This document shows, in pieces, positions 33,171-64,000 of a stretch of 64,000 nt of DNA (positions within the stretch are counted from its first letter, which is position 1; every line of letters starts with the position of its first letter). This stretch comes from a virus (taxonomy: Duplodnaviria > Heunggongvirae > Uroviricota > Caudoviricetes). The notes below the pieces were generated by a model. The model saw only the letters and a list, made by a program, of their open reading frames with translations, searched no databases and was not told where the DNA came from. The DNA lies in IMG/VR virus record IMGVR_UViG_2029527006_000005, one strand, 5' to 3'. The position numbers and the translations under genes are program-made.

Positions 33171-33171
33171 T

Positions 33172-33429
33172 TTATTTCCTTTTTAGATGTACTGGTACAT
33201 GATAAAATGGATTGAAATCTGCACCATTGGTATCATGAATACATACGTTAAATGTTTTACCAGTGAGAACATCGGCGGGAGTTTCAATAAATTTGTGTAG
33301 AACATCGACATTGGTCGGTTCGGTTATCACAGTTACATCATAACCTTCTTCACGTAGTATAGCAGCAATTCTCATGCTTGTCAATGTTTTTCCACAATGA
33401 CTTGAACCTTCAATTTTAATTTTAATCAT
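33172..33429 (-). CDS. Small P-loop protein (thymidylate-kinase-like N-terminus)
   Basis: IEGSSHCGKT...GYDVTVITEP. Confidence 0.5.
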   Translation of the reverse strand: MIKIKIEGSSHCGKTLTSMRIAAILREEGYDVTVITEPTNVDVLHKFIETPADVLTGKTFNVCIHDTNGADFNPFYHVPVHLKRK

Positions 33430-35240: not shown

Positions 35241-35629
35241 TCAATAATCCTTACTAGACGTGTTGCACCGTTACAGTACTGAATACAATACGGTCCGAAT
35301 TTACCATCAATATTATCCTGCATGAATCTTTCAGTACTTTCACCCATAGATTTAGCTGCTTGAGCAAGATTGAGATAATACATTTCCGTATCATCACTGT
35401 AATAAACATCTATAACAGCATGATTTCTGGGAATATGTACTTTACGGACGAAGTGATATTGTACTGTACGATCAACAATTTCATCAGGCTTAGTAAAGAA
35501 AGTTTTATCTTCACTCATTTCTACTACTAAAATGAAAAGCTGTAATGGATTATCAAAGCGAAGCATTTTCACTAAATCTTCAAAACCACTCTCACCACGT
35601 CTACCAATAAGAAAAGTATAATCTTCCAT
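35237..35629 (-). CDS. Hypothetical protein
   Basis: AAGGA RBS. Confidence 0.7.
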   Translation of the reverse strand: MEDYTFLIGRRGESGFEDLVKMLRFDNPLQLFILVVEMSEDKTFFTKPDEIVDRTVQYHFVRKVHIPRNHAVIDVYYSDDTEMYYLNLAQAAKSMGESTERFMQDNIDGKFGPYCIQYCNGATRLVRIIE

Positions 35630-35669
35630 ATAGAATCCTTAAAAGGGCAGTGCAAGCACCGCCCGTATT

Positions 35670-36602
35670 TTAGAAATTACCTTCAGCCACGGCAAAGACC
35701 TTTAGGCCGATTAGGTTCCTCCACATTTTCACGACTTGTTCGCGATCATCGAATACTTTGACGACTTTCATCTTACCATGAACGTGCTTCATGTACAACT
35801 CATATTTCACGATATCATCGCTACGGTTGTCATGTTCTTCACGCATGAAGATGTGATCAACTGGAACATTGTGTTTTTCAAACCATGCAAGGGTATCAGC
35901 CATACAGGTTTCATGACGACCACTCATGACGATTACTTTACGACCGAGGAAGTTCTTTTCTGCTAGTACAGAAAGGATTACTTCAGGATCGGGTTTATCG
36001 TCAAGTACTTTAGTCTCGTCATAAGGTCCACGGTTCCACATATGTGCAACAGTACCATCCACATCCACGATGATATATTCTTGAGCATCTTCTGCGAAGA
36101 ACTCAGAATTAACTACGTGTACAAAAGAACTGTACAAGTACTTCACTGCCATATCATCGATTACTGATTCAGGAACTGCTTTAACGCGGTTGATGTTACG
36201 AGCCTTACAGTGTTTTACGAATTCTTTTACTGCAAAGAACTCGTGAACAAAGTCTTTACCCTTTTTGAACTCAGTGAAGAAGTTCTGTTCTTTGTAAGTG
36301 TATCCATGTGCCTTAGCAAATGCTTTCCACTTCTCACGAACTGTTGGGTTAAGGTTCGTGTCAGAAACGATGATGTTCCACTTGTTAGCTGCTGCATGTT
36401 CCGCTGCACTGCACTGTACAGATTGTACGTACTGTTCGTTGTCTTTACGGAACTTGTAGTTCTGGTGTGTACCAGCCATTGTCTCACGCACGTCATCAAG
36501 GTTGACGTTTACCGTTTTGGACTTTGCAGTACGTACCTGCTCGTTAGCCCAAGTACTTTTACCGCACCCCGGAAGTCCCACCGTTAGTGTTAGTGTTGGC
36601 AT
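35670..36602 (-). CDS. pseT: Polynucleotide 5'-kinase / 3'-phosphatase
   Basis: GLPGCGKS, DTNLN, DVDGT HAD motif, SGR, FDDR. Confidence 0.93.
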   Translation of the reverse strand: MPTLTLTVGLPGCGKSTWANEQVRTAKSKTVNVNLDDVRETMAGTHQNYKFRKDNEQYVQSVQCSAAEHAAANKWNIIVSDTNLNPTVREKWKAFAKAHGYTYKEQNFFTEFKKGKDFVHEFFAVKEFVKHCKARNINRVKAVPESVIDDMAVKYLYSSFVHVVNSEFFAEDAQEYIIVDVDGTVAHMWNRGPYDETKVLDDKPDPEVILSVLAEKNFLGRKVIVMSGRHETCMADTLAWFEKHNVPVDHIFMREEHDNRSDDIVKYELYMKHVHGKMKVVKVFDDREQVVKMWRNLIGLKVFAVAEGNF

Positions 36603-37307
36603 CTTTGTTTACTCCAAATTTGTCTGTAATGATATTCAAAACGTGTTCACCTACGCGAATACTCGCAGTATCTTTTGCACCACTGTATTTTAATGGTATC
36701 CACTCTAATTTAGCTTTGTGTAGAAAAGCTATACAACGACGATAATCACCTAATGAGAAAAATTTAACCACTGACATATCCTGTACTACACTGTGGGTAA
36801 CTTCTACTTTCATTTCTCTTCTCCTAAGCGTCTATAAAGTCATAATTATTGAACATCAAATCAATGTTGAAATATGCATCTGAATCAAAGTACAAACAAT
36901 TATCAATACAGTATATCTGATTTCCGATACCTTTGCAATGATTATATATGTCCTCTCGATCTTTTTCTGAGACTCCTGCACCTTTATCAATGCAGTACCA
37001 TTTCTCATTATAATGCATAATCGTTAGAACGTCAACCCTACGATTAGTCACGGTAATCTGTTCTCCCCATATTTTGAATGAACCTATTTTGATCATAGAT
37101 TCGTTCGGTCTTCGGTTTTTTGGGCTTGTGCTCCTTCTTGTACATAGTACTACTAATACCAAACGTGTTGGCAATCCGCTTCTTACTCTTCTTCACTCCC
37201 GCAAAGGAGCGTTTTGACTGCAAAGCGTCAATCTCTTGAAGTATTTTTCTATGTTCTTCTGGAGTACGGGTTTCTCCCTTTTTTAGTTTATATTTTGTGT
37301 TAGCCAT
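36559..37307 (-). CDS. Three small hypothetical proteins (36559-36813, 36824-~37096, 37044-37307)
   Basis: Overlapping ORFs between rnlA and pseT. Confidence 0.55.
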
Positions 37308-37335
37308 AACTTCTCCATGTCTTGGCTTATATGTA

Positions 37336-38487
37336 TTAGAAGTCTTCTAACACATCTTTCATGTACTTCAACATCACTTCTTTGTAATCCACAGGTTTAT
37401 TGTTGTATAACGCAAAAGCAATACCTTGATGATTCAAATCCTTTGGCAAGTTACGCTGTACTACTAAAGCGAACTCTTTACGATCAAGATCTTTATAAGC
37501 ACTTACAAAATCCTGCACAGTCTGTTGTAAGTTATTATAGGTTGAAAATACTAATTTTTCCATACGCTCAATCTTATCTAAGCAGTACTGATCAGTACTA
37601 AACATCTGACGTAAATCATCCGATCCACCTGTTAGTACTGCTTCGTATAGACGGGAATCAACGTTAATACTATCCTTAGTGAAGTGCAATGCACAGTACC
37701 ACTCGGTCTTAATTTTAAACATTGTACCATCTTTTAATTGAACGACAAAACCTTCGATACCCGTCATTTTATAAACAGACTCAATCGAATCTTTTAAAGT
37801 ATGACACATTGGGAAGGTTTTGTCAATATCCCCGCTGTTAGAAAATACTGATTTATTATATAGTACCGGGAAACGTTTTTTCAACGCTTCACCTGTTAGT
37901 AGCTCACCAGTGCTGCGGTGACGCAAGTTTAGTACAGTCAACTCATCTTTCTGATATGGTAACACAATCCTGAACTCAGGGGAAGTGTACTCCAAATTCA
38001 CCGTGTACATCGCTAGGTCAGCTTCAATGATTGCCTGATGGAAATCATCATCTGCGTGAATTAACGCCGTAGAATTGATTGCATGGTCGCTGTGCATAGA
38101 TGTATGAGACTTGGTACGGATCACTCCGTCATTATCAGTGAAAGTACTGATAATCGAACCATCACGCTTATCCATAGCAATTGTAATTTCCGAAGATAGA
38201 ACATCCTTCGGGAACATCACTAATGGATTCTCATAAGCGTTAAAGAATTTCTGTGGTGTACGACACGCGACACGGATTAAAGAACCGTCCGGGCGAATCT
38301 CGAACATTGTACCACGACACTCTAATGCCGATGGCTCTAAGAAATCCGAATAGGAAGCAAGACGGTACGCAAAGGTACGATACAAGCCACCAGCAATTGA
38401 TTGTGTGTCACGGAAAAAGAATGCTTCGTTCTTTTCACATAACTGTAGTAACTCATTGTACAACGTAATGATTGAAGGGGTTGCCAT
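37336..38487 (-). CDS. rnlA: RNA ligase 1, T4 RnlA-like
   Basis: ECRG, KFFN, KRDGS, IEGFVV, KIKTEWY; start probably MATPS. Confidence 0.92.
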   Translation of the reverse strand: MATPSIITLYNELLQLCEKNEAFFFRDTQSIAGGLYRTFAYRLASYSDFLEPSALECRGTMFEIRPDGSLIRVACRTPQKFFNAYENPLVMFPKDVLSSEITIAMDKRDGSIISTFTDNDGVIRTKSHTSMHSDHAINSTALIHADDDFHQAIIEADLAMYTVNLEYTSPEFRIVLPYQKDELTVLNLRHRSTGELLTGEALKKRFPVLYNKSVFSNSGDIDKTFPMCHTLKDSIESVYKMTGIEGFVVQLKDGTMFKIKTEWYCALHFTKDSINVDSRLYEAVLTGGSDDLRQMFSTDQYCLDKIERMEKLVFSTYNNLQQTVQDFVSAYKDLDRKEFALVVQRNLPKDLNHQGIAFALYNNKPVDYKEVMLKYMKDVLEDF

Positions 38488-40701
38488 GATTTTCTGCCTC
38501 AAATAGTAGTTCTAATGCATTTTCATACATAGAATCGATAATGTTTAATGATAGTTCTGCTGGAATGAACTCAGACAAATCCAAATCCAAGTGCTGGTAA
38601 TCCAAATCAAAACCAATACTGTGCTTTCTAGCAATCTTTTCCAAATAGTCATACACTTCACACGCAGGTTTGATGTACTGGTGATCTGGAAGATTGTACA
38701 ACATAGTCATTTGGAAATGCTCATCTTCTGCAATATTACGATCCACTTCTAGTGATTCGTCCATGTACACAATTTTAGTACTGTGCATAGGTAGATACAT
38801 CCACGAAGGATATAAAATAGTTCTACCACCATAGTTTTGTAGATTACCGAATAATGAAGGTTGGTTGGTTTCTCTGTCTTCTAACATCAATCCAATTCCA
38901 TTAGTACCTTTCTTTGAAGTCAAGTACATTTCATAGCGACTTAATGGATGAGATAATCCTACAAAACATTCAGAGAACATGTTTTTGTACTTTTTAGATT
39001 CTTTTAGTTCAAATACATCAACAGCAGTATGGAACCGCCATTGATTGACTAATTCAAAAAAGAACAACATAGATTGTATATTTTTCATATTAATCCTTCT
39101 GGAATATCTAGGTTATCAAAATTCTCTTCCATGCCAATATCAATCATTGTGTTGGACATGTAGCATATTTTAGCTAAAGATGGACAGTACTTAGCAATAG
39201 CATCGTACATCTCTTGAGTACCGAAATTATAGATAGTATTCATTTGGAATACATACTCTTCATCAAAAGAATCCATCTTACGAGTTTCAATTGGCATCTC
39301 ATCAAAGTACGACCCAACATCTACTAAATGTGTAATGTCCACCATTTCACCTAATTTACCATACACAGTAAGTTTAGGATAGTATGTTTCATCTAATCGT
39401 ATTCTACTGTTCGGTGCTTTTGGTGAACTGCGAGAACAATCATAGATAGTAATAATCTCTCTACAAGTTTCTAAATTGTGAATACCAACTTTATAATGCG
39501 TAACATACGCTCGGTATGGACCAATTTGGTTATCAAAGAAATTGGATTCATTTTTATTACGATCATAAAGTTGTATTAAGTTAAACACTACTTCAACTAT
39601 ATTCATTTGGTCATCTCCAAAAACTCATAGGACAAGTTAGGCATGATACGTTGAGGTAGATTCCCAGAAACGAAACATTTGTGTTGCATCATCATTGGGC
39701 GAATCTTTTGTGCAAATTCGTAAAACGCCATAAGCTCATCAAGCTCTGGAAGAGAGCTAATGGCGGTACTCAACATGAAGTGGTTACCTTCTTCACATAC
39801 TTCATGGAAGGAATATTCCTCACATTCTTCACCAGCCCTCATCTTTATACGAACAAGTATATCATCTAAAAACTTTGGATTCAAGTGATATTTGATCATA
39901 CCACCCAAGCCAATGTAAATTTCCGATCTTTCTTTTGAGTCGTTTTTGAAATTCGATATCTCAAATCCATAATCTAACGTTTTATCACTGGCTGACCAAC
40001 CAGAGTACTCATACTCTTCAGTACGGTTACCACGTACATCATATGTACTCTCTGCGACATGAGAATGAGTCATTCCAAAGTCTTCATACTGTCTACGTTG
40101 CTTTACCTTTTTGTCTCTTAGATTGTACAAAGAATCAAAAGCATTAAGTACACTACGCTGTAAAGTTTTATAATCCCGCATATAAATTACTCCAGTACTC
40201 AAAGTCACCACCCTCATTTACAATCTTACGAACTAACGGAATAGGGTTTAACAACTTACCACGATAAGATCCATTAAATGAAATACCGTTTTCAATACAT
40301 TCAGTCATAGCTTGATATACTTGTTGAATTTCTTCAATATCAGTACTCAATTCAGCAAGTAAACTGTACTGAAAATATCCTTCCTCAGTGAGCAAATCTT
40401 CAGTACTAACTGTCATGTTGGTTCCACCAGTAACATACAAGGTAGTGCGGAAGTCTGTATTGTTGTTAGTAATGTACGCTCTTTTGGACGTAATGGCAAT
40501 ATAGTTACGTTCCATATAATGATTAAATGAACGATTCATCTTCATAGAGTAGCCATCGTTATACACTTCTAATTGACGACTATTCCTTTCCCATTTCCAC
40601 AACATATGGTTGTACTTGTACGCAATATCAAAATCGGAAACTTCTTCTTCTAACTCTTTGAATAGTTTAATTAAAGTACGGATATTTTCAAGATAATACA
40701 T
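38453..40701 (-). CDS. Four FQxS-motif family proteins (38453-39088, 39085-39606, 39603-40217, 40168-40701)
   Basis: EDEHFQMT, EEYVFQMN, EGNHFMLS, EEGYFQYS. Confidence 0.75.
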
Positions 40702-40707
40702 AGAACC

Positions 40708-41013
40708 TCACTTGTTCCAATCACTTCCCATAGATTCAATCTCTTCAGCGATATCATAGATCTCACTTAGAGTTGCTTTTACCCAAAACACAGTTGAACT
40801 GGAAATACTTTCATATCTGTGATTTCCAGAATACAAGAATACAGTATCTTGAGTACATTCTACAGTACTGTCACCAATGGTAACATGGTCTAATAAAGTA
40901 TATTCTTTACCTTCTGGTTTTTTGTACACAGAAGTGTTGTGATCAATATTAATAGCTTCTAGTTGAAACCACACATCATTTGGAACTGCTCTGATATTAT
41001 AACTCATATTCAC
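40708..41013 (-). CDS. Hypothetical protein
   Basis: 101-aa ORF. Confidence 0.65.
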   Translation of the reverse strand: MNMSYNIRAVPNDVWFQLEAINIDHNTSVYKKPEGKEYTLLDHVTIGDSTVECTQDTVFLYSGNHRYESISSSTVFWVKATLSEIYDIAEEIESMGSDWNK

Positions 41014-41057
41014 CTTCTATTAAAAAGAGTACACGACATGTGTCGTGTACATAATGA

Positions 41058-41789
41058 CTACATTAATGAAACCATTCCGAGAAGAATACTTTCATCAGGT
41101 CTTTGATATTTTTGTTTTTCTATTTTGAAGTAGAATGAATCAGCATCTTGTAAATCATAACGCTTTTTCAAACAACGAGTATAAGTACTGTTATTTGGAT
41201 GTACCCATTCGTACACCTGAACACCATCCTCATTATACCCATCAATACTTCTTCTGTTCCCTTCGTGCTTGTGGAAGTTCTTACTACGTTCAGTAAAAGT
41301 CTTTTCAGCAACACTATCAGGGAAATCGTATATGTATGGAACTTCTGTTAGTCTGAAGTAAAAGTATTTCTCATCTTCAGAGTAACCTAGAAGAACAGTT
41401 TCAGTACTAGTCACATTGTACTTCTCTTTACTCTTCTGTTCGTTTTCCATAATATCTTGTAGTACTTCTTTTAAAACAAGATCTGGTTCAGCATTAGGAT
41501 TGGATACCCCTGATACACGTCTTTCGATAATGAAATCAGTGAATCTCCTTTCTTCTTCTACTTCGCCATTCATATACATACCCACAAACTTGTCTTTATA
41601 TGACTTTACTGAGTACTGCATACCCTGTACTTCACTAAACACATCAGCCAATAGGTTAGCTTGTCCACACTGTACCCCTGACGAAGCCGCCGCAGTTGCG
41701 TATTCTGCCATGATTGGGTTTAGTGCTTGGAAACTAGCCATGTTTAACTCGTTTGCGAGTTCTTGTGCAAATTTAATTCGATCTAACAT
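41058..41789 (-). CDS. Hypothetical protein, possible PD-(D/E)xK nuclease
   Basis: AEY...LADV...QYSVKS resembles restriction-endonuclease motifs. Confidence 0.4.
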   Translation of the reverse strand: MLDRIKFAQELANELNMASFQALNPIMAEYATAAASSGVQCGQANLLADVFSEVQGMQYSVKSYKDKFVGMYMNGEVEEERRFTDFIIERRVSGVSNPNAEPDLVLKEVLQDIMENEQKSKEKYNVTSTETVLLGYSEDEKYFYFRLTEVPYIYDFPDSVAEKTFTERSKNFHKHEGNRRSIDGYNEDGVQVYEWVHPNNSTYTRCLKKRYDLQDADSFYFKIEKQKYQRPDESILLGMVSLM

Positions 41790-41821
41790 CGTTCACATTC
41801 CTTGTGATTAAATCTGCTTTA

Positions 41822-43040
41822 CTACTCCTTAATTCCATATTTTTGTCTTAAATCTTCTATCTCTAAATCCACAATACATCCCGAACTCTTCATCAGTACT
41901 TTATCGACATGTTCACTTAGTAGTAAAAGATGTAATGCATTCATCGCAATGACGTATAAGAATTCTGGAGTTTCGGTATCTATCATACTGTGCTGAAACA
42001 TTGATGCTTCATCAGCTAAATCTATAGTATTAGTACGACCTTTACTATCTTTGATAATAAATTCAGTACTTATATTTTCTATTTTAATAGTCCATTCGTT
42101 GGGACTAAAATATCCAAGGGATATTAAATTAATTCTTGGAGAACGGACCATACCCAAATGGAATGTCTCTAGACTTGCTAGATGTTCAGTATTACCATGC
42201 ATATAAGTACCAATACGCGGCGTAGTACTTTGTACGTAAAATGTTTCCGAAGCAATTTCACCATCAATACGATGGAAGGTTTTATGCGTTTTAGCATCTC
42301 TGGAATTCATCAATGCTAATGGATAGTTTATGTGGTTGAATGGTAGTTCAGGAAGTTCATCAGCTTTCATGCGACTAATCTCCATCATGTACTCAATGTT
42401 TTTTATCATTCTTCCAAAGTTAAGTCTAGCTGCTTGTTCTTGCGTCATATTCATCCCTCAAATTACGGATACCTAAATCGAATTTTAAAAAATTACACTT
42501 CAGGGTAAGTTTATTCACATTGTGAGATTTATGCAATAACTTTCTCATATTCTTTGCAATATCTAAAAGATACAACGGCACACCACCGACTACTGAGTAC
42601 TGAAAAACTTCTGCTTCATCATTAATATTGACAGTAGATGTTAATATATTATTAGCAGTTGAGATATGCTTGAGAACATAATGTGGTGACTCTTCTTCGA
42701 TAATGATATACAAATCCCGACTACATTCATTATAGATAATATAATTATCAAGTTCAAAGCGACTATCTTTATATGCAGTAGTCATATAACACACAGATGG
42801 GTTGTACATACTATCTTTTGGTTTGAAATTGACGTAGATGCTGGGTTCGGTTGCGTACATATAAGTTCTGCCTAATTTCGCTGAATCTTCCATTACCATC
42901 TGGTCTTCTATGATATTATAATTTGCGTTTTTAAACCCTAGATCCATCATATGGATACCTTTAGCACTCATCTCTAGCATAAAGTCCATAGAATTGATAA
43001 TATTAGTTGAATTCAAAAGGGTTGCTTCTTCTTGTGTCAT
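41822..43040 (-). CDS. Two related FQxS-family proteins (41822-42454, 42426-43040)
   Basis: Both start MTQExA.xLN; DEASMFQHS and DEAEVFQYS. Confidence 0.8.
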
Positions 43041-52069: not shown

Positions 52070-54647
52070 TCATTTAGCTTCTAGCTTATACGCCTCAACC
52101 GCTTCAGATACATTCTCGATAGCTTGATCGATAAATTCTTTACTAACTAAACGCGGGGAGGTCTTCATTTCTTTTAGAAGCTCTAGGTATTTAGTCATTA
52201 ATTCTGGGATGATTCCAAAGTCGAAATCATGCACAGTGCTGTACTGAAATAGTTCACCACCATCGACATACAAGCGATTGTACGAGGTTTTAAACCCACT
52301 TTCGAGTACTGTTAGGGTCAAATCCAAACCACGCTCATACGAGCCTACAGACACGATAGCAGGGTTGATAGCAATACTAGCATTCTTTGCATTATCACTA
52401 TAAACTAAACGTAAAGTTCCAGCACCAATAATAACAGTTAGGTCATCTGTATTAAGGGTAGTAATATCCCCAGAAACAGAAACTTTATTATTTAGACGGT
52501 CTTTAGTACTGAAAGATTTAGATAGCCGTGCAAATGCATCTTCAAGTTTATTCATTATTCGTAATCCTTTAGTAGTTCTACTAGTTTAACAATACTATCA
52601 TCACTGCAAGTGTACGATAGGTTTAGAAGGGTGTACTGGAAGAAATCAATTTCATTAATTCCACCATACGGTACTGGTTGGGCTTTACCTTGTTTGTCTG
52701 CCATGTAAACATCTTCTGCATCAAAACGCATAGAAAATGTATCACGTTCTTCTGGGTTCAAATACACAATAAAACGACCCAAGGATTTAGCAAGTTTTTC
52801 AATCCTGATGCTATTAGAACCATAACTGAACTCAGCATCACCGCGATCATTCTGGAAATGATAGAAGTTGATACCACCAATATTAGTATAGCCCTCTGTG
52901 TATAGAAGGTCTTTGTGGTGATACATAACTTGAATCAGTTCATCAAGCGTAGTCGTCCGAGTCTTATTTTTGGTTAGCGAAAATAAATGAATCATAAATT
53001 CCTCTGCACATGGATAACGTTTTAATCATTGTATCATAGTCGAACTTGACTTGCAACCCCCAACCACCCACACAATTTTGAGTGAAGAAAACACCCTCCA
53101 TCTCGTCAAGTGTGAACGCTTCATCAAACAAATTAGTCTGATATAATTCGGTCTTTGGATTGTATACCATCAAGAATTCAGTACTGTAACGTATTACTAA
53201 TTTCTTTGGACTAATCATAATCCTGCATAAATCTTGCAAGTACTCAGTGCGAATATGTAAGTTAATGTGATTCTTATGACCAGCACAACGAACATCCATC
53301 GCGTATCCATCACCGATAACAAAACCATTTCTGGGGGTAAATTCTTTACCCGCACTCATTGACAGGCAATCCTGTACAATATAATTGATTGTATCCAAGT
53401 TGTCAAGTATATCTACTTTACGCATATCTTCTCCTTTAAATCCCAACCTTATGTATCAATGTACGACGAATTTTACGAACATACTGAGTCTTAAATGAAA
53501 ACGGGATATAAAGATGATAACCCTCTAATTCCGGGCAAGGTGCTGTAAGAATCTCTTCATAGGCTCTTTTAATTATATTGTACTCTGGTAGTTCTGGGTG
53601 GATCAACGATAACTGAAAATGCTCATCTTCAGTACATAACCCTTCCTTAAAGAATGTGTCAACATAATCATCAGTATCCAATAAATCTGAATTTTCAGAA
53701 TTAACAAAAGAATAACCAAAAAATTCATCATCTTTGTTGTAGGCAACACTGCAACCTGTATTACAAAATAATGAAATGCCAGTATCTTTGGATAAATGGA
53801 ATACATGTTCGGAACCGTAACCATCAATGTATGTTCTTATATATATTTTATCTTTATCAGTCCATACAAATTCTAGTTCATTACCATCGTCCATGCGAGT
53901 GTTTTGTTGATAACTATAAGCTACTTTTTGTTTCCTGAAATTCAAACAACGAATAGCTAGATCTCTACATAACTCGAAATGCTCTTTAAGTTCTTCATAG
54001 TTCATTGGTTAAAATTCCTCAAAGTACAAACAAATGTCATCATAGATAGTGTTAAGAAGTTCAGTACTAACTTCTGGACAAAGATCCATATAGAAACACA
54101 TACCTTTCATTTCAGTACAATCCATAGTTAGTGCTTCCATATAACGTGGAAGGTCTTCGTACTTCAATACCATATCATCACGAATAAGTGATTGTTGAAA
54201 GTACTCTTCCTCGCTGATATTAATTACACCACCATCTAGCTTAGAATCCAAGTACTCATCTTCGTGATCATTCCCACTATCAAAGAATGTATACTCTTCA
54301 TTACGTTCATCACCTTCCATGAAGTTACGGCCCCATCCACGATGTGTACGGAGATTGATAATATACAAGTGCTCATGATTTCCAATTTCGCAAATCTCGT
54401 AACGTTCTTCGTGATCATCCATATCAAATGATACACGAACTAATGCATGTTCGTCTGCGTACTTAAACCCATACACCCTGCATAAGTATTGTGGCATGTA
54501 CTTTTCATAAGAGAATACTTTTGGTTTATTCTTATTAAGCAAAGCACCCAATTCTAGCATAAGTTTGTAACGATAGATATCTTCATCTACTTTGTCTTTA
54601 AAGGTTGAACGCATCATAAAAGTCATTGACAATATCCTCTGCCTCAT
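52070..54647 (-). CDS. Five FQxS-family proteins (52070-52555, 52555-52995, 52964-53446, 53436-54005, 54009-54647)
   Basis: GELFQYS, IDFFQYT, EGVFFTQN, EDEHFQLS, EEEYFQQS. Confidence 0.75.
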
Positions 54648-55005
54648 CTTGGTTCATTGGTTCTACTGAAAGTATTTCGATACGTTCAGGTTCCCAGATC
54701 ATATAAGAATTACATGTATCTGGTTCGAAAAGATTTTTGTACTCAACTGAATTATATCCGTCACGAGTACAGGAATTGATTGTATCACGCCATGCTTGAC
54801 AGTCACCCATGTCATCCATAGCCACTACACGACCTAGATCTACTTCTAAGCGGTGCACATAGATCTCTAGCTCACCACTACCACAGTAGTTGCGAACCTT
54901 GCGTAAGGCCGCCTCAAGAGCACTGTGAATACCTCCCATATGAATCCCACCATATGGAACGTAAAAATCTTTAATTTTAACTGTACTTGCGTGATACAAA
55001 ATCAT
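54598..55005 (-). CDS. ADP-ribosyltransferase-fold-like protein
   Basis: LYHAS...F...GIHMG...A...GYNSVEYKNLFE...SYMIWEP fits the HxS/T...YxNxxE ART-like pattern. Confidence 0.5.
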   Translation of the reverse strand: MILYHASTVKIKDFYVPYGGIHMGGIHSALEAALRKVRNYCGSGELEIYVHRLEVDLGRVVAMDDMGDCQAWRDTINSCTRDGYNSVEYKNLFEPDTCNSYMIWEPERIEILSVEPMNQDEAEDIVNDFYDAFNL

Positions 55006-55006
55006 T

Positions 55007-58000
55007 TTAATATCCCCATAGTAATTCGTCTAAGCATTTATATGACGGATAGTAACACATCTGGGGTTCGATTGTCAAGCTATCATTATCATAAAGAGGA
55101 AGATTTCTCATACGATTCATGATCTCATTTAATTCTTCAGCAGTGTAAGTGTCCATGATAGTACTGTGCATGAATAACTCACTCTCTGCTTCAGCATCCA
55201 ATTGGCTGTCACGACAGTACCAACCAATCTCGTATTCTTTCTCTTCTAGACCATATACCCGTACTGGACATGTATCACAACAAGTAGCATTAGAATAAAT
55301 CTCTATCATGTTCACGGATAATCTGTTAGTTGGGTGTCTGGTAAAACATTGTCCTAGAGAAAGAATACCATTACGGTAGGAGTACTTATTTTCTTGATAA
55401 GAAATACTCATATAGTCAGGCCAGAAGTCTGCTGTTACTGGACCTTTTTGCTGTGCATGAATATTGAGATTAATACCATCACACGTCTTCTGAAAGTTAT
55501 GGTAACGCTGAATTAAAGCAAATAAAGAGAAGTACACTTTATCATTTAACATCATATCCATAACGGTTTTTAATTTTTGATCTCCAATCATTACCACACC
55601 TTTCTGCCATTAATTCAATAAGTGCTTTACGTGCTGGAACAAAACGCAACACGTCTGTTGTACCTAATGCAAGAATTGATTCAGTACTGATATCATCCTT
55701 GAACATTTTTAAATGATCATGTACGAAGTGTACTAGATATGCACCATCAATTCTTTTTTGATCCCCTACCAGTAAAGCCTGAAACTCTGCTTCACGCATC
55801 GAATCATTGTCTATCCCCTCAAGAATCATATTATACACTATCGCAAAATCATTGTCAAAGTTGCGATATAAATTATCAATACAATCCATATGGGATAGTA
55901 CAAATCTGTACTTTGAATTGTTAGGGGAAGTGAAGTTCTTAATATGATTCTTACTACTTGTAATAGTAATTAATCTATCATAACCTTCATCGTATGTAAT
56001 AGCATTGTGTAAATTTACTTCAGGCCATCCAAAGCTAAAACGGTATGACCGAATCTTTTCACCTTTCTCGTGAGGGATATAATGCTGACCACCAATACCA
56101 CTTCTGTACTTTGCTAAATCTGGGTAATTATCATTGTAGAGTTTAAACATGTACATAATATCTAAAATGTACCCAGATAGCTTTTTCATCTTTTCGTATG
56201 AAGTCTTCATGCTAAATTTAATAACCCCCATACCTTTTGAGTACAATAATCTTTGAGTTTAATGTCGTTAAGTTCCTCTTTATTCTCGGCAATTGAAATG
56301 GCATAATCAGGTGGACAGAACTCACTAAAGTGATGATAATGTTCCCTCATCATTACATAATCCGAATAATCAGGAACCGAAGCCAAAGTACTCAACTGAA
56401 ATATTTCCTCTTCAGTAATATCAATTGGTACTTGAGATAGTTCTACTGTACTATTTCCAATCACAATATCAGTACTGGAAGAATTCATATACATATTCAT
56501 ACGTTTTGAAATCGTATCACCAAAACCACTAAACATCAACCTAGATTCTTTTGGCATAAGCATATTTGGTGAAGGAGAGACATTGAATATTTTAATTCTA
56601 AAGATTGATATATTATCACGGTGTTTAACATCAAATGTAGTTTCATACTCATCTTTGTATAAACACATCTTCAACAATCCCATACAACCATCATAGCTCA
56701 TCATTAAGTCTACATAGAAAGAAGGTACATTATTATTGAAATGTATTACTGCTTTTAATAAGTTTGTGTAATCTTTGAAATCCATGCCATGCCCTCATCT
56801 AGAATTGAATCAATAATCTCAAAGTTTTCATCACTCATGCGGTTGACCATAATAGTATTAATATCTGGGTTTAAATTCTTTAGTACTGCTAGAATAGTTA
56901 ACGCACGTGCATCCGGTACAATCAAATCCGATAGGAAGAAAAGTTCTTCCTCGTTATTACCATCCCATTCTGGAACTAATACTGTCTTATTATCAACTAG
57001 CAATTCATTACCTTGACACCTACGCCAGAACATAAGAATACCATTTACAGTCGTATCCATTCTATTTTCTAGTACTGGATTCGGATGATTGAAAGTTCCA
57101 ATTCCAAATACTGGAAGATTGTAATCATTATTCAGGATTTGAAATCCAGAACCAGCAGTACTATAATTCGTATTGAACTCGAATTTACCTTTAGTAATAC
57201 GGTTACCAATACAAGAGTAAGGTTGTAATGCGTCAACTTTTTTACAGAAGTTTAAAATATCAGTCATGGAATGTATCTCTCAATTTAGTAAGTTCTTCAA
57301 TAATAGTATCAACACAGAATGTATGATTAGAGTACGAAAGAACACTAATTCCATTCGGGTTGTTGTACTTATAATGAGACATAATCGCAATCTCATCAAT
57401 TGCGGTGTTATCATAAATTGTACTCAACTGGAAGATCTCACCTTCACCCTCACCAGTTTCAATGTTAACCGGGAATAAATTGATAGAAACACTATCCTTA
57501 CCACCAATATAATCCATGTGTTTACATTCACTAAGACGAATAGAACTCGCTTGGTGTTCAGAACCATAACATATAGGAGCCACTTTAGACTCCCTTGTTG
57601 AAATGTGATAAAGAGTTGTAATGTTCAAAACAGTATAAAGACTAATACCCATATCATCATTGTGGAAAGTAATACCAACATTATCATACAGTGTTTTACA
57701 GAAGTTCTTCCCCTCAAATGCATAAAGAGGTAATAGTTCTTCCAAGAGTTTTAGTACTTTATAATGTTTCTGATACATTAGATATCCTCTTTTAAATTCT
57801 GTACAAAAGTAACAATCTTACTTTCTACTTCATCAATGATTGAATCATCAACAACAGTAGGAAGGTTTATGTACTGATCATATTTCTTTTCATTCTTCGC
57901 TACGTAACCGTCAAACATGTTATCAACGATATTAAGTAAACTGAAGATACAGTACAACCCAAATGAATGACCATCAAAGGCAGTAACAGTACTGTGTTGG

Positions 58001-59624
58001 AATTCCAACTCTTCCATCTCATCACGTACAATCAAAGAACCACCAGCTTCTACTGGAAGCGACTCAAGCTCAATAGCTTCGTGTGCATTCTTTTCAGTGA
58101 AACGTAATGTAGTCTTTTTACCTGATAGTACTAAAGATTTACCAGTTAAGTAATTTTCAGGACTGTAGTAACCGTTATTTTCAGCTAGATGCGTTTTGAG
58201 AATAGTATTACCATTATGTGTCTCATTGTTCATAATCATAACAATGAACTCATTACTCCCACGTGTATAGAATAAACGCAAGGAATGTGTATCATTAACA
58301 TCACCCAAATCCCACATCATTCTGTGCTTGATTTCAGTACTGTCAGATTGATCTAAAAGTACAGTCGCTTGTTGAATGTACTTAATCATACGGTAGTGCT
58401 TTAACATGCTATTGTGATTCATTATAGTATCCTGTATCTTCTGAATAATGGCCTACTTGTAAAATAATTATACAGATAATCATTCTCCAAGTCAACCCCT
58501 CTGTGGAAATTATATACCACAAAATCGATGTTCTTCAGCCGCAATGCTTGAAAGTCAATGACGTTGTACATCATATCACGCATAAATTTGTTGTCCACTG
58601 TGAAGTCCACTGCTACTTTGCGTTCAGCCGCATCACACGTTTGATCATACGGAATATATTCTTCTAGTACATCTCCACTATCTAAGTAACCACTACGCAT
58701 AGTCAAGCACTGATCACTGAGTGAAGTTAATATAACACTATCAGTGTACATATAATAGTTCACGTGAGTATGGCTTGTTATTAACCCTTCGGATGCATAG
58801 AATGTTATCACGTCATTGTTTAGTGAAGCTACATTCTTCTTCTCAAGTACAAGTTTCTTTACTGACTTATTATTACCTAAATCTTCAGTATCAACCCTTA
58901 AAGCAAACTCACCCAAGTCAATAAGATCTTTGCGATGGATTAGTCTTTCCCATTCTATGTCAAGCATTGAACTGAACTTAATAAGCTCTCTATATATCGT
59001 GTCAAGTGTGTTCATAAGACCCCCATAAAAGAAAAGGCAGTGTATCACGATACACCGCCTGTGTCAACATCAACATGCCGCTTCTGCTTCAAAAATATCA
59101 ATCATAGCTTGAACCGCTTCAGTACTGAAGGATAACAAGCGAGTCGCATTTAGTGCAAAATAATAATCGTTATTCATTGTGTTATGATAACAGTACTCAA
59201 TGTATGAAGCAAATAGTTCTATTTCATTATCTACAACCATACGCTGGAATAGTTCATCATCAGTACCATTGACAATTATTTCAATTTCAGCACACTCTGG
59301 ATTGTTATCAAAATTGATAATCTTACGCTCTAAGCAAGTCTCTAAACTATGCATAGTTAGAAGTATATCACCTAGATTGGTTTTTTGTATATGCATAGTA
59401 CCTTCAGAACTTCTGTCCAAATAAGTATGACACGCAACTAAGAACCAATCATCTATTGTACTTTTAAGTACTGAACTATGATGTTCGCGATTAATAACAT
59501 CAGTCCCAACAAAAACAGTCATCTTTGCTAAATCAGTAATATTTCTGCACATGTGCCGTTTATTGTCATGTATATCCATGATGCAATCAATAAGTTTCTT
59601 TATTAGATCGAATTTGGCAAACAT
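55007..59624 (-). CDS. Eight tandem FQxS-family proteins (55007-55597, 55542-56246, 56207-56785, 56755-57267, 57260-57778, 57778-58422, 58422-59015, 59070-59624)
   Basis: ESELFMHS, EAEFQAL, EEEIFQLS, EEELFFLS, EGEIFQLS, EELEFQHS, DDELFQRM; 58422-59015 lacks a clear motif. Confidence 0.75.
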
Positions 59625-60217
59625 TTCTTTTTCATCTCCTGAAGTTCAGAATGAGCATCATAGATTTTCTGTACTGAATTAGCAAAACAAATATAAACCT
59701 TAGTGTGGTTTTCTTCACAGAGAGTATCTTTCAACATGAAGTTCAATACCATAGCATTGATTTCATCAGTACTATATACTAGACCCTTCTGGAATAATTC
59801 ACCCCGTAACTCTTCTTCATTATTAACATGTATTAGAGTAGGAAGATATACCTCATCACCTTGTATATCCCGCCAGAACCAATTACGATCATTCACTACT
59901 AAGATTTCACCACTACCTTCTCGAATGCACATACGCTTCTTGTCTGACTGATAGCGAGTACTGTATGGTCTGTTGTCATCCATAGGATCAGTATTAGCTG
60001 CTACAATAAATGAATTATAATAGTTCACATCTTCAGAATTCAACTGCAATGCAATACTATTTTGTATCTTCAGGATTTTGTACTTTGAACTCTCATATAG
60101 TACTGCATCCATCTGGGTTACATCATCTAATACCATGTAATCAGCTATGTCACGAATCAATAAACAAACTTCTTGTACTGCTAACCACTCCAAATAACTA
60201 CAATCTGCTAAATTCAT
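59603..60217 (-). CDS. FQxS-family protein
   Basis: Start MNLAD after GGAG; RGELFQKGL. Confidence 0.75.
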   Translation of the reverse strand: MNLADCSYLEWLAVQEVCLLIRDIADYMVLDDVTQMDAVLYESSKYKILKIQNSIALQLNSEDVNYYNSFIVAANTDPMDDNRPYSTRYQSDKKRMCIREGSGEILVVNDRNWFWRDIQGDEVYLPTLIHVNNEEELRGELFQKGLVYSTDEINAMVLNFMLKDTLCEENHTKVYICFANSVQKIYDAHSELQEMKKKCLPNSI

Positions 60218-60248
60218 CTTAATCTCCAACTTAAACGCAATCTCATAG

Positions 60249-60342
60249 CACCGTCGCCCGGTCGCCCCCCGATTACACTTTATTTGCACTTTGTGAAGCG
60301 AAAATTTTTTTACGCCCCGGCACGCATATCCTCCGGGGGGTA
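60249..60342. other. GC-rich intergenic element; candidate genome terminus, packaging or injection-stop signal
   Basis: CGCCCGGTCGCCCCCCG...GCGAAAATTTTTTTACGCCCCGG...CCGGGGGGTAAC in an AT-rich context, at a compositional boundary. Confidence 0.45.
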
Positions 60343-60346
60343 ACAT

Positions 60347-63300
60347 TTATTTATGCTTTGTAATTTCCATCATTTCGGCTAATTTCTTGTTCACATTCAT
60401 AATAGCTGTATCTAAACGTTTAATCTGTAACAAACTCTGTCCGTAATAAATCATTTCACCTAACTTGTACTCCGCATCACGTAAACCCATCCACGTAGCA
60501 GCACCATCCGTCAAACGACTATCAATACACATCTGTGTCTGGAATAATGTCTCATCTGGTAGCTCCATAATATCTAAACCATCAGGCAATTGTACTGCAC
60601 TGTTCTCGTACTTAACTTGTGCAAACAAAGGGGTATTACGCATTACGTACTGAATGTAATTACTATCTTCTGTACTTTTAATAACTGAATGTGTTGGAAT
60701 TGGCTTCAATGGGATAATGGGCATGTTACGATTTAAACTAACGTACATTGAATTACCTTTACCAACAGATAAATCTATTTCGTCTGATTTTCCCGTTCCT
60801 GCACTAAAAAAATACTTCTCTTCTTCAAACAATGCCTGTACTTCATTGTAGGTCACTCCACGTGCTCTGTGCTCACGAATCAACCACAACCCAGCAGCAA
60901 TGTGCGGTAAATATTCATTACCGATTATGTACTGATCACGGAACTTCTTACCCTCTTTACTCACTTTTAATTTTAATGACATATTCTTCTAATGCCTCAA
61001 TAATTTCATCGTAAGGAATCACTATAACATTATCCACCGCGATTGTCAATACTCCCGTAAGGATATCACACGTATTAACTAAATCATCGCCCTTCTCAAA
61101 GGTACGCTTGATTTGATCAATACCCATCGAAAAATCACTCAACACCTTATCAGCATCTAATGCCATATCAGGCTCGCAACTCACATTGTGCTGGAATAAC
61201 TCGCATTCTAACGCATCGTAACCATCCTCAAAGGGATTCTCTAAACTGAATACCCTTGGCCTACCCTTCTGTACTACGGCCCCTGCTGACACCATAGCGA
61301 TATCCTGAAGCGATTTATAGGAACTCTGCCACGATAACCAATGACCATCTGTACTGATAATCGGTACTGCATTCTCGAATTTACTATAATGACACGCTCT
61401 GAACTCAGCAATGGGTACAAATAACATACCACTCATTGTCGGTACTTCAATCTGTAATGAAGCAACCCATACATCATTTGTGTGATCAGGGTGGTAATAC
61501 TTCTTCGGTACTCGTATACGAAAACCTTGCGGTACTGAACCTACTACTTTACGATCAATACAACGTGGCATTGCCTCCATTATCTGTACTAACCTTTGTA
61601 ATTTAATACTGTTCAAAGCCTGTGTATCCATTGTATCCATTGAATCCATACTGTTCTCTCATCAATTTGATAATGTTCAATACGCCCTCACAATGGTTCA
61701 ACGGATCTGCACCTAACCACATTTGAATGTTAGGTAACTTCCGTCTACGCCACTCGAACGCAAACATCAAAGCATTAATAACTTCAACCTTCTGTACTAA
61801 ACTCTCTTGGAACAAAAACATCTCCGTATCTGGATCTGTCATGTCCATCATTTCGTACTCAAAATATATATCACTAATGATACTTTTACGGAATATAATT
61901 CTATCACTATCTTTGTTTAATGATATATGACTCGTTACTGTATCATTTAATAATACTACGTTTAACTCTATGTTTGTGGTATAATCCCAATTGTACTTTA
62001 AAACCGTTTTATTAACACACGCTATATGAAAAAACTGCTTTTTATCTTTATAATTATAATTGAAAAAACCACCATCCCTTTCAAAACCTACAACAACATC
62101 ATTCTCAAAATTCCATGACTGTACATTGAATACTTTTTGTTGTATGTCTTTATTCTTCAGGTACTCATTCGTGATACCAATTAATGCCATCGCTTCCTCT
62201 AGGTAATCAATGCATTGACGCACCTCTTGTACTGTTAATATGTTCATAACTTTGGCTCCCCAAGCTGTACGTATAATTCATTGAAGCGTTTATTCTGGTA
62301 ATATTCTATGGTACTCTCCATGCTCTCTATTACACGATCTAATACATTTAAGGACCACACGTGTACAAAAGCAAACCTAGGCATCTTTAATTCATGTAAT
62401 GCGTACATAATACAAAACTCATCGTACAACTTATCATGTATTAAACTCTGCTGAAATAAAAATGATTCCTTATCGTTGAAATCTAATTCATATTTCGTAC
62501 CATCTTCATCATCGATATCCCGCACGAATGCTGTACTATTTGGATTGTAAATTATTACATTGTGCTGATTACCCTTGATAATTTTCTTATCCGAAATGTA
62601 ATTGTAATCCCACATATCCCCCCAAGCGATCTTGTGATCGATAACAGGGTCACTACCCTGATACCACACGCAATCACCCCTATCATGAAAAGCTGATACC
62701 ATCAAAGGACTTCTGCATATTGGTGTATCACATGTGTATGTGTACAACTGCTCCAATAAGGAATCAATCTTGCATATTTTCTGTGCGTACTCTATGTGCC
62801 AATCTTGCATCAACTTCCCCTATGAATTCTGCTGTACTGTTCTGTACATATTCTAAAATCTCTAATAAACCCTGTAATGAATATGCATTAAAACGTAATG
62901 TGAAATTGTGCTTGAACTCATTCTCTTTAAGATACAACCAAAATCCTACATCAATTTCTTGTTCTGTGCTTTGTACTAAACTCTGCTGGAATAGCCATTC
63001 CTCGGTCAAATTCTTACGCTCATGGAATGCATGATGTATACGTATTGTATCACCTGTATCAAACGAAAAACGTAAAGCTACTCCTTTCGCCCTGTGAGGT
63101 TCTCCCATAATGAATGAAACACTATTACACAAGGACTTTGCAAGGACTCTACTCTCTTCATCGGTGGGATGATTGAAATATTCTAATGCACCTCTGCTTA
63201 TTGTAAAACATTTTGGTACTTGCATCTTAATATCATTACGCATAGCTTCGCAATTCTTAATTACAAATAATGTGTACGTATCATATAATGTCTTTAAGGC

Positions 63301-63868
63301 TTCCATCGCCTGTCCGTACTCGTGTCTCTCGATCATAAATCTTCTCCAAATCAGCAAGAAATACATCTACATCAAACCATAAATTCTGATGGAAGGTTCC
63401 CAATATCCCAGCATTATGCATAGCGGATACAACGTACTGACAATGTACAACCTCTGGTTTCGCTACGAATTGCAACTGCTCATACATAGCCTCATCCATC
63501 TCTTCTGTACTAAGGATATCATGAACTGAAAAGGTATTGCAAGAACTTTCGTACAAAAAATCCATCGTGTTTTCAATGTTTACACTACAATACGTACAAT
63601 TCTGTACATCTCTGTAATTAGCAAAATTCGTATCGTCTGTTGTACTAATCAATGTGTATGTATTCAAAAGATTCTTTTTGTTATAATACAACATGTGCTC
63701 AAGGTCACCATCTAAATGTAAACTCATCTCGATTTTTATTGTACCACATGAACTAAAATATGTACCCTTACCATCGTAATTTACAATAAATGCTTTGTAC
63801 TTCTCTAACCATTCAAAGCACTTTAGGATTTTATTTGTGTAATTTGTTGTGTACTCAAATGTGTACAT
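60347..63868 (-). CDS. Six tandem FQxS-family proteins (60347-60982, 60957-61649, 61603-62247, 62244-62813, 62764-63336, 63281-63868)
   Basis: DETLFQTQ, ECELFQHN, EMFLFQES, ESFLFQQS, EEWLFQQS, DEAMYEQL. Confidence 0.75.
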
Positions 63869-63999
63869 AGCACCTCCTGGAACAACGTAATTAACTCTCT
63901 TGGACTGTGTACTAAATTCTCATAATACACCAACTGCCTCTCTTGACTATCCAAAATACTCATGAGAATAATACAATTCACTACATCTTTAGTGTGTAC
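63823..63999 (-). CDS. C-terminal part of a further array member; 5' end outside the window
   Basis: Hand translation ...VHTKDVVNCIILMSILDSQERQLVYYENLVHSPRELITLFQEVLCTHLSTQQITQIKS*. Confidence 0.6.
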   Translation of the reverse strand, partial: VHTKDVVNCIILMSILDSQERQLVYYENLVHSPRELITLFQEVLCTHLSTQQITQIKS

Positions 64000-64000
64000 A

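Follow-up and report, generated by a model that had tools for sequence, protein, structure and literature searches.

The MGF110, MGF360 and MGF505 families of ASFV and the terminal host-range and Bcl-2-like families of poxviruses function in host range and immune evasion. Among phages, the T4 internal proteins IPI, IPII and IPIII come from a polymorphic locus, and IPI* is an anti-restriction factor; these proteins are packaged and lose, by cleavage, an N-terminal capsid-targeting peptide. The immunity proteins of polymorphic toxins (SUKH and Imm families) are encoded in head-to-tail arrays and act as specific binders or inhibitors. We analyzed a window of 64,000 nucleotides, the whole stretch of DNA under study, from a Caudoviricetes record (IMGVR_UViG_2029527006_000005) that is a RaK2/Munch-like jumbo phage and carries a large array of small, diverged paralogues. 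Like the ASFV and poxvirus terminal families, this is a set of tandem diverged paralogues by the genome ends, with strain-variable copy number and one fold at low identity; the viruses, hosts and folds are different, there is no homology, and the host-interaction role of the phage family is our proposal. The T4 internal proteins are likewise hypervariable small phage proteins with only a short constant sequence in common, but in the present array the constant block is an internal piece of the fold, and a phage-preparation proteome lacks most of the proteins. Immunity-protein arrays also consist of small soluble alpha+beta proteins that are very divergent tandem paralogues. However, there is no significant sequence or structure similarity between the two, no toxin genes lie beside the phage array, and the phage is lytic. 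Immunity proteins did occur among the insignificant structural matches (YdcD, Z 3.4; TipC2, Z 2.6; Tsi3, Z 2.0). Bacillus phage G, another jumbo phage, has about 35 zinc-ribbon proteins that stem from a lineage-specific expansion (PMC7824862), likewise dozens of copies of one small role-unassigned domain, although the domain, the phage group and the genome position are unrelated to those described here. The RaK2 genome paper stated that "nearly 10% of gene products are paralogues" (PMC3622015), and the CBB genome paper mentioned "22 ORFs ... paralogs" (PMC5259590). Our literature search found no account uniting these proteins as a superfamily with a signature and a conserved terminal-repeat position.

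The main array lies at 52070-63868 on the minus strand and consists of 21 tightly packed, back-to-back ORFs of 135 to 247 aa (Table 1). With longest-ORF starts, 16 of its 20 junctions overlap and the remaining gaps are 1 to 21 nt; this choice of starts overstates a few lengths, for example that of 59603-60346, which probably begins near 60217 and whose database representative (P0041) is the 204-aa form. Fifteen of the 21 ORFs are demonstrable family members, four are borderline and two have no detectable membership. A first-pass annotation made from the sequence had described about 20 consecutive, translationally coupled paralogs at 52070-64000 that continue beyond the window edge. The packing, the extent and the run of members up to the edge were borne out; its count included the borderline ORFs and the two without a family signal, and a second block of six further members lies outside its coordinates, at 38453-43040.

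Table 1. Features of the two gene blocks, in window coordinates; hhalign values are probabilities against the family profile unless stated otherwise
Feature	Coordinates	Strand	Motif	Evidence or remark
Second block, four members, directly upstream of T4-type RNA ligase 1 (37336-38502)	38453..40701	-		hhalign 64-93%
Second block, two members, closer pair	41822..43040	-		BLASTP E=7e-11 between them; profile-profile 100%; hhalign 77%, 91.5%
Member, 161 aa; final gene of main array	52070..52555	-	GELFQYST	HMM recruit; hhalign 92.8%; phrog_38478 match
Borderline member, 146 aa	52555..52995	-	IDFFQYTL, in register	HMM E=0.013; hhalign 6.8%
Embedded conserved gene, 160 aa, borderline or non-member	52964..53446	-		phrog_15293 E=3e-51; hhalign 1.6%; 69% identity to Munch orthologue
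Two members, 189 and 212 aa, closer pair	53436..54647	-	EDEHFQLSL, EEEYFQQSL	Orthogroup profiles 98.8% to each other; independent HMM E=2.8e-7, 5.8e-9
Embedded non-family gene, 135 aa; separate conserved family	54598..55005	-		phrog_11632 E=2e-47; hhalign 0.1%; 65% identity to Munch
Six members in a row	55007..58422 (55007-55597, 55542-56246, 56207-56785, 56755-57267, 57260-57778, 57778-58422)	-	ELFMHST, EAEFQALL, EEEIFQLST, ELFFLSD, GEIFQLST, ELEFQHST	All recruited by iterated HMM; hhalign 93-95.5%, except 56755 at 1.2%; independent HMM E<=1.5e-4 for 57260, 57778, 56207 and 56755, weak for 55007 (E=0.026) and 55542 (E=0.076)
Perfect sigma70 consensus TTGACA-17-TATAAT, sense strand, within gene 55542-56246	55830..55858	-		
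Array ORF without family signal; true start probably near 59015	58422..59048	-		No HMM, hhalign or PHROG match; 35% identity to Munch positional orthologue
Sigma70-type promoter, 11 of 12, about 45 nt upstream of 58422 start	58467..58495	-		
Terminator-like hairpin, 11 bp stem then T run; divides array into transcription units	59035..59060	-		
Two members (59070-59624, 59603-60346)	59070..60346	-	ELFQRM, ELFQKG	HMM recruits; hhalign 92.8%, 95.1%
Borderline member	60347..60982	-	TLFQTQ, in register	HMM E=0.0014-0.03; hhalign 2.5%
Borderline member	60957..61649	-	ECELFQHN, in register	hhalign 4.5%
Sigma70-type promoter, 11 of 12, extended -10 TG, about 40 nt upstream of 60982 start	61021..61049	-		
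Four members (61603-62247, 62244-62813, 62764-63366, 63281-63868)	61603..63868	-		Independent HMM E=4.7e-7 to 7e-10, nearly full length; hhalign 90-97%

There was little overall identity among these proteins, and pairwise BLASTP among the window ORFs gave two matching pairs in all. An iterated HMM drew in array ORFs only, across nearly its whole model length, with all non-array ORFs at E>0.1. A leave-one-out HMM on motif-selected seeds, a circular design, returned 0.6 to 24 bits (median about 13). An independent HMM was trained on 109 members that have no BLAST hit to any window ORF; with it, 21 ORFs of both blocks outranked the first outside ORF, 13 of them at E<1e-3, and the alignments were near full length (for example, 13-167 of 174 model positions). 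Comparison of orthogroup profiles with the family profile by hhalign was bimodal, giving 64 to 97% probability for members and at most 3% for flanking genes. The member ORFs are one multigene family with homology extending past the motif. Given a median pI of 5.0 and a longest hydrophobic segment of at most 8 residues, its proteins are predicted to be small (about 150 to 230 aa), acidic, soluble and cytoplasmic.

The family was found only in RaK2-like jumbo phages, at 7 to 47 copies per genome (121Q, 47; G001, 36; Munch, 28; GAP32, 9; CBB, 8; BF, 8; XbC2, 7), so the array content differs widely among relatives. A search of 1.84 billion proteins yielded 232 family clusters, and the 150 of these that were listed span 116 to 233 aa. 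Members are scattered over at least 12 PHROGs, all function-unassigned, including phrog_9317, 12674, 32531, 38478, 34017, 22855 and 23379, whose entries are "hypothetical proteins" of 121Q/PBECO4, RaK2, GAP32, CBB, BF, Munch and fENko-Kae01. These are the same proteins as those considered here, and their BFVD models are the only structural matches; the PHROG entries, however, are unconnected groups without a name, motif, fold or function, here joined as one family. Ten window members and 150 family representatives had no Pfam-A match above the gathering threshold, and a sequence profile search of the PDB gave chance-level matches only. Searched at the DNA level with the array, relatives match just its last 284 bp, and the reach of tblastn with one member was limited to five Munch-like phages. 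These sequence comparisons place the array in an old multigene family limited to one phage clade. The family makes up 5 to 8% of all genes in these 350-kb phages and a large share of their "dark matter." Once the scattered hypothetical proteins are recognised as a single superfamily, annotation and experiments can start from its simple signature, its confidently modelled structure for which no solved relative was detected, its constant place at the boundary of the terminal repeat, and its rapid birth and death.

The best explanation overall, to which we assign a probability of roughly one-half, is that this clade-restricted family is an early, diversified repertoire of binders built on one scaffold. 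Each paralogue would bind another host protein, either a takeover target or a defence effector, and would act by binding rather than by catalysis. If members do bind host factors or defence proteins, there would be dozens of candidate inhibitors per genome, and the array would be a clean model of host-interaction gene diversification in large phages. We more tentatively suggest that the family could be a phage decoy or inhibitor library on an unseen scaffold, in which each early binder neutralises a different defence effector or takeover target and the set is renewed at the terminal-repeat boundary. Were that true, it would be the phage counterpart of the poxvirus and ASFV immune-evasion families and a large untapped anti-defence source.

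The family signature is a stretch of 13 residues, [ST]-E-E-x-[YHL]-F-Q-x-S-[LT]-[ILV]-[YH]-[DSN], found about two-thirds along a protein of 150 to 230 aa. The ten motif strings that had been quoted in the first-pass annotation are all present, at about 0.6 to 0.8 of ORF length. The pattern FQx[ST] occurs 18 times in the 93 ORFs of the window, versus 3.9 times in shuffles (maximum, 10), and the 331 ORFs of four related phages contain 63 instances of [DE]xxxFQxS[LTM], versus 0.2 in shuffles (maximum, 2), which puts the motif far above chance. The signature is carried by 11 main-array and 5 second-block ORFs and is degenerate in 6 others; clear members with a partly lost motif include those with ELFMHST, EAEFQALL, ELFFLSD, ELFQRM and ELFQKG, and 63281 lacks a clear motif. 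Column conservation among 150 of the 232 clusters is 98% for F, 99% for Q, 88% and 68% for the two E residues and 85% for S. Outside the signature, the family alignment keeps only hydrophobic patterning, with loops of low occupancy, and the conservation profile places the hypervariable portion in the beta region and its loops, in agreement with the variable middle described in the first-pass annotation.

Three likenesses of the signature to known motifs were rejected. The TEV protease site is ENLYFQ|S; E-x-x-Y-F-Q-x-S has an additional residue before S, there is no such protease, and the motif lies in folded protein. Flexible tails hold the clamp-binding peptides of bacteria (QL[SD]LF), whereas Q-x-S-L-[IV]-[YF] lies in an ordered helix-turn. 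For an ADP-ribosyltransferase-like motif, the R and the E-x-E region are absent.

An AlphaFold model of the family representative P0001 had a pLDDT of 90.4 and a pTM of 0.86. In it, the motif forms a helix (113-120) and a turn (121-124) between the last sheet strand and the following helix, and this region, with a block-mean pLDDT of 92 to 96, is the best-predicted part of the protein. The model of window member 62244 was poorer (pLDDT 63.8, with the beta region poorly predicted); both models share the order N-terminal helix, beta-rich region, motif helix and two to three C-terminal helices, which is the common layout that had been proposed from the sequence. Searched against the PDB, the P0001 model gave a best Z of 3.4 in VIA-align, with none at 5 or above, and a best E-value of 0.14 in Foldseek; a fold search with the 62244 model gave no match. 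BFVD matches at E<=0.05 were solely uncharacterised RaK2-like phage proteins or nameless UniProt entries. The p32/gC1qBP (MAM33) fold, in which seven antiparallel strands follow one N-terminal helix and precede two C-terminal helices, was the top Foldseek PDB match. That match stood at E=0.14, TM 0.16 and an rmsd of 18 A and was lost on realignment; the fold was missing from the VIA-align lists at Z>=2, and the likeness is one of element order alone. Judged from secondary-structure order and the conservation pattern rather than from coordinates, the scaffold would have the N-terminal helix and three later helices packed on one face of an approximately seven-stranded antiparallel sheet. The signature, a short helix and turn joining the sheet to the helical part, would be its structural keystone, leaving the opposite sheet face and the loops free to vary in sequence and by insertion or deletion.

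The four polar residues that hardly vary (E, E, Q and S) could equally well belong to an active or ligand-binding site. The family might thus consist of enzymes, with E-E...Q.S as a catalytic or cofactor site and the paralogues modifying or cleaving different host substrates. The retention of these residues (88%, 68%, 99% and 85%) amid freely drifting sequence is active-site-like, and the proteins are predicted to be soluble and cytoplasmic; a catalytic motif would mean a new enzyme class. We consider this unlikely, since our searches found no similarity to enzyme folds or Pfam families, several clear members have a damaged motif, which is unusual for catalytic residues, and we know of no precedent for a single phage with 30 to 47 paralogous enzymes.

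The first-pass annotation had instead taken the constant motif for a docking peptide. The proteins would then be adaptors, in which the variable part delivers different targets to a single common partner on which the exposed motif docks; that partner could be RNA polymerase, a protease of the phage (ClpP working with a host unfoldase, or a different one) or further members of the family. The signature is the sole strongly conserved block in a hypervariable family, the window encodes a phage ClpP (23119-23796), and there are many copies with variable surfaces, all of which would suit an adaptor. However, in the confident model the motif sits in a well-ordered helix-turn instead of some flexible tail or loop, the only variable positions in the motif helix (x115 and x119) are the ones expected to be solvent-facing, and we know of no ClpX, ClpA or ClpS recognition signal like it. 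With variation confined to the positions expected to face solvent, a buried keystone fits better than an exposed linear motif. We deduce this burial from the conservation pattern and a helical-wheel interpretation of the DSSP string rather than from coordinates; on that basis the motif looks like a helix-turn keystone inside the fold. These features do not support the docking claim, and the adaptor model is rather doubtful, somewhat more so than the enzymatic one.

With respect to expression, the early binder repertoire that we favor would be driven by strong sigma70-type promoters, the first of them at the direct-terminal-repeat boundary. In Kae01 and CBB, the terminal repeat is followed directly by the array, and in three relatives a strong sigma70-type promoter lies immediately upstream of the first array gene. 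The window array has four sense-strand sigma70 promoters scoring at least 11/12, versus 0.4 in shuffles. A generic promoter scan showed no overall enrichment, the near-consensus class alone being enriched and strand-biased. From the promoter types and the position of the first promoter at the terminal-repeat boundary, early synthesis is probable, and host RNA polymerase probably transcribes the array in long operons whose genes are tightly packed. Neighbouring genes encode Rnl1, PNKP, ClpP and phosphoesterases; the array occupies a sigma70-promoter-rich and presumably early region beside RNA-repair and other counter-defence-type genes.

Positional orthologues of the array genes in related phages are 1:1 and syntenic with 27 to 60% identity (about 36%); orthologues of flanking genes are mostly 64 to 95% identical (median, about 78%). 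All 21 window members are nearer to their positional orthologue than to any paralogue. Between two close relatives, pN/pS was 0.14 for family genes versus 0.10 for their neighbours, with no sign of pervasive positive selection. Purifying selection acts on the array genes. Phage G002 shows a lineage-specific expansion adjoining the terminal repeat. In the binder repertoire, diversity would be maintained as genes arise and are lost close to the terminal repeat, with fast sequence change under continued purifying selection as a second source. A reading as largely dispensable, drifting duplicates that lack a specific function, in a genome with spare capacity, would accommodate the extreme divergence, the spread in copy number from 7 to 47 and the in-frame stops in some 121Q matches. 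It is improbable in view of the pN/pS value, the gene order and intact open reading frames held 1:1 over four lineages, and a signature kept at 85 to 99% (150 of 232 clusters).

Finally, the family members are probably not mainly virion proteins. An LC-MS/MS list of 220 Kae01 proteins, from an ultrafiltered lysate containing many non-structural proteins rather than from purified virions, flagged one of 27 main-array genes and none of the second block. Virion-associated proteins that are ejected to act before transcription, in the manner of the T4 internal proteins with their similar hypervariability and short constant signal, would agree with the moderately conserved N-terminus (M-x-x-[YF]-E-E-D-L) and the one detected orthologue, but are highly improbable given so few detections in an ultrafiltered preparation and an N-terminal helix that the P0001 model confidently predicts as integral to the fold, unlike a targeting peptide that could be detached. 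The protein detected, ENKO_077, is the Kae01 orthologue of 52070..52555.

The FQxS family, the paralogous proteins of the array, is best read as a repertoire of small binders that is specific to one clade, expressed early, and built on a single scaffold. Diversification would have taken place in the loops and on the exposed face of the sheet, and the signature would act as a keystone of the fold. The first-pass annotation had proposed a diversified repertoire, and the analysis supports it. The main array (52070-63868, minus strand) holds 21 ORFs of 135 to 247 amino acids arranged head-to-tail, with overlaps at 16 of 20 junctions and gaps of 1 to 21 nt at the others, in agreement with the earlier description of about 20 consecutive, coupled ORFs. 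The motif strings quoted there, said to lie about two-thirds along the ORFs, were all present, at 0.6 to 0.8 of ORF length. Six ORFs in a second block (38453-43040, minus strand) carry the same motif. The window ORFs contain FQx[ST] 18 times versus 3.9 in shuffles, and the stricter [DE]xxxFQxS[LTM] appears 63 times among 331 ORFs from four related phages versus 0.2, confirming that the motif exceeds chance. The longest ORF, 59603-60346, is probably overextended, the start of the database representative lying 43 codons downstream; a later start would leave a noncoding gap of about 130 bp (60218-60346) amid overlapping ORFs.

The window has a GC content of about 36%, and its minus strand carries nearly all genes. 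Its conserved parts show about 80% DNA identity to Salmonella phages Munch, 7t3, PHA46, and SE_PL and to Klebsiella phage fENko-Kae01 (Kae01), with weaker similarity extending to phages 121Q, GAP32, CBB, BF, and XbC2. Based on this similarity to Munch-type phages and, more distantly, to the latter five, the window is assigned to a RaK2-like jumbo myovirus.

BLAST comparison of the window ORFs with one another was almost blind, and a first leave-one-out HMM test, which used motif-selected seeds, was circular and gave a weak outcome; for these reasons, relatives were brought in. Syntenic arrays, annotated as hypothetical throughout, are present in Munch (CPT_Munch_054-080) and Kae01 (ENKO_051-077), and IMG/VR supplied two extra lineages, a 366-kb contig with terminal repeats (G001) and a 109-kb fragment (G002), whose repeat-proximal members show a crisp signature, Y-[ST]-E-E-x-[HY]-F-Q-x-S-L-[IV]-Y. 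An iterated HMM seeded with 63 motif-bearing ORFs converged at 119 of the 331 ORFs, every one of them in arrays, and the new recruits aligned across nearly the entire model. No ORF outside the arrays and second blocks reached an E value of <0.1, and some unrecruited ORFs within them scored 0.001 to 0.03. When four-sequence orthogroup profiles were compared with one another, network links were almost entirely intrafamily; against a 150-sequence family profile, members scored 64 to 97% probability and flanking genes at most 3%. In the strictest test, an HMM was trained on 109 members that shared no BLAST match (E < 0.01) with the window ORFs. All of its 21 best matches were ORFs of the main array and second block, 13 window ORFs had E values of <1e-3, and alignments covered, for example, positions 13 to 167 of 174. 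The HMM search of all ORFs, a check that the first-pass annotation had suggested, thus revealed near-full-length homology beyond the motif. The main array comprises 15 members, 4 borderline ORFs (52555, 52964, 60347, and 60957), and 2 undetectable ones: 58422, which matched no PHROG, and 54598, which falls in a different, conserved PHROG. The ORFs at 54598-55005 (phrog_11632) and 52964-53446 (phrog_15293), both on the minus strand, are well conserved and represent unknown families other than FQxS inside this fast-evolving array; they are 65 to 69% identical to Munch and keep their position in all four lineages.

Across 150 representative cluster sequences, the conserved block reads [TS]-E(88%)-E(68%)-x-[YHL]-F(98%)-Q(99%)-x-S(85%)-[LT]-[ILV]-[YH]-D. 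Conservation elsewhere is limited to alternating hydrophobic positions of strands and helices, and two loops are the indel hot spots. A model of ORF 62244, built with a 93-sequence family alignment, had confident helices and a poor beta region (pLDDT, 63.8), and a compact G002 member, P0001, modeled with 150 sequences, reached a pLDDT of 90.4 and a pTM of 0.86. The predicted elements of P0001 are a helix (3-22), seven strands (32-106), the motif helix (113-120), a helix (125-138), a strand (147-153), and a helix (154-169). The order is identical in the two models, consistent with the common layout noted earlier. Foldseek of the P0001 model against the PDB gave p32/gC1qBP as the best match (E = 0.14; TM, 0.16), a candidate that was absent after realignment of the top 1000 Foldseek hits (maximum Z, 2.8), and the highest Z from VIA-align against 48,161 chains was 3.4, with none at ≥5. 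The PDB searches therefore found no solved relative; a confident model is seldom so isolated, although this does not prove a new fold.

The motif had been proposed to dock on a common partner, a less likely reading that the models do not support. It lies in the best-predicted part of the model, with block means of 92 to 96. In its eight-residue helix, residues 113, 116, 117, and 120 face one side, 114 and 118 flank it, and 115 and 119 lie opposite; the variable positions are exactly 115 and 119. The L-[ILV]-[YH] that follows is hydrophobic, and the subsequent [DSN] is compatible with capping of the helix that comes after. Because of this pattern, the motif is probably a buried helix-turn keystone rather than an exposed linear docking motif, with burial deduced from a helical-wheel reading and the conservation pattern. 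An enzyme family is a further alternative, and strictly catalytic residues are opposed by the eroded motifs of several clear members (ELFMHST, EAEFQALL, ELFFLSD, and ELFQRM).

The Kae01 array begins at 19,822, just past the terminal repeat, whose end is at 19,736 (PMC11218385). In CBB, the repeat ends at 22,456, and CBB_53, the first gene beyond it, is a family member; further members, of which CBB_391 and CBB_398 were checked, lie at the start of CBB_390-546, a region suspected by its authors to be early (PMC5259590). The window array has 4 near-consensus sigma70 promoters (at least 11/12) in the sense orientation, versus 0.4 in shuffles, and the whole window shows a strong strand bias, with 16 on the minus (sense) strand versus 1 on the plus strand. 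In Munch, G001, and G002, the first array gene is immediately preceded by one such promoter, and the 21-kb terminal repeat of Munch contains 28 in the sense orientation, nearly one for each small gene. A terminator-like hairpin (59060-59035) splits the window array. If T4-type phages are a guide, the host polymerase would probably transcribe the array early. The proteins might instead be ejected, but LC-MS/MS of an ultrafiltered Kae01 lysate (220 proteins) flagged only ENKO_077, the orthologue of 52070-52555, among 27 main-array genes, and for this reason the family is not considered mainly structural; none of the Kae01 second-block genes was flagged in that list. The family consists of acidic proteins (median pI, 5.0; net charge, -10) in which no hydrophobic segment exceeds 8 residues.

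Window members and their Munch orthologues correspond one-to-one in conserved order at 27 to 60% identity (median, about 36%), versus 43 to 95% (median, about 78%) for nonfamily genes at 40.7 to 52.0 kb; the same contrast holds in G001 and G002. All 21 window members tested are nearer a positional orthologue than any paralogue, and therefore the duplications predate these lineages. Members beside the G002 terminal repeat are closest to one another, which indicates a lineage-specific expansion there. Drifting duplicates are opposed by a pN/pS of 0.14 between Munch and Kae01 (neighbors, 0.10), by which the genes are under constraint, not in decay. Two neighboring family genes (Munch 24025-25060) have only 92.7 to 95.6% DNA identity to Kae01, the phages being otherwise 98 to 100% identical; recombination or selection might account for this local hot spot of divergence.

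In a set of 1.84 billion proteins, the family profile matched 232 clusters formed at 50% identity. The 150 listed clusters are all 116 to 233 amino acids and mostly matched near full length, and thus lack domain fusions. Six-frame matches numbered 47 in 121Q, 36 in G001, 28 in Munch, 9 in GAP32, 8 each in CBB and BF, and 7 in XbC2. Several in 121Q (KM507819.1, about 161 to 189 kb) contain at least one in-frame stop and could be pseudogenes, frameshifts, or matches spanning gene boundaries. No Pfam family covers the members, which are spread across 12 PHROGs of unknown function, and a PDB sequence search gave chance hits only. Of the predicted viral structures, those matched at E ≤ 0.05 were solely uncharacterized proteins of RaK2, GAP32, 121Q, SP27, BF, fHe-Yen9-03/04, and pEa_SNUABM_47 or nameless UniProt entries. 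A metagenomic contig with a distant member has a codirectional run of genes for 145 to 200 amino acids, similar by size and direction alone. Genome papers mention the paralogues only in passing (PMC5259590, PMC3622015), and a term search of a broad jumbo-phage survey did not find the family (PMC7824862).

The genes tabulated below, from ClpP to Rnl1 (23119-38502), form a neighborhood of the RNA-repair and counterdefense type.

Window genes near the FQxS family genes
Gene	Coordinates	Strand
ClpP (phage)	23119-23796	-
Calcineurin-like phosphoesterase, first	23811-24602	-
ATP-dependent DNA ligase	25041-26483	-
Calcineurin-like phosphoesterase, second	28401-29144	-
Polynucleotide kinase-phosphatase (PNKP)	35670-36602	-
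T4-type RNA ligase 1 (Rnl1)	37336-38502	-

Amid the second family block, 41058-41789 (minus strand) encodes a 243-amino-acid protein of a function-unknown PHROG (phrog_16105). No gene in the region is more conserved; identity to Munch reaches 94.7%. The sole plus-strand cluster of the window (13560-20060) consists of four paralogous ORFs of 422 to 658 amino acids that have an N-terminal region of about 120 to 230 amino acids in common; two of the four contain bacterial Ig-like (Big_2) domains, and they may be fiber, whisker, or decoration proteins.
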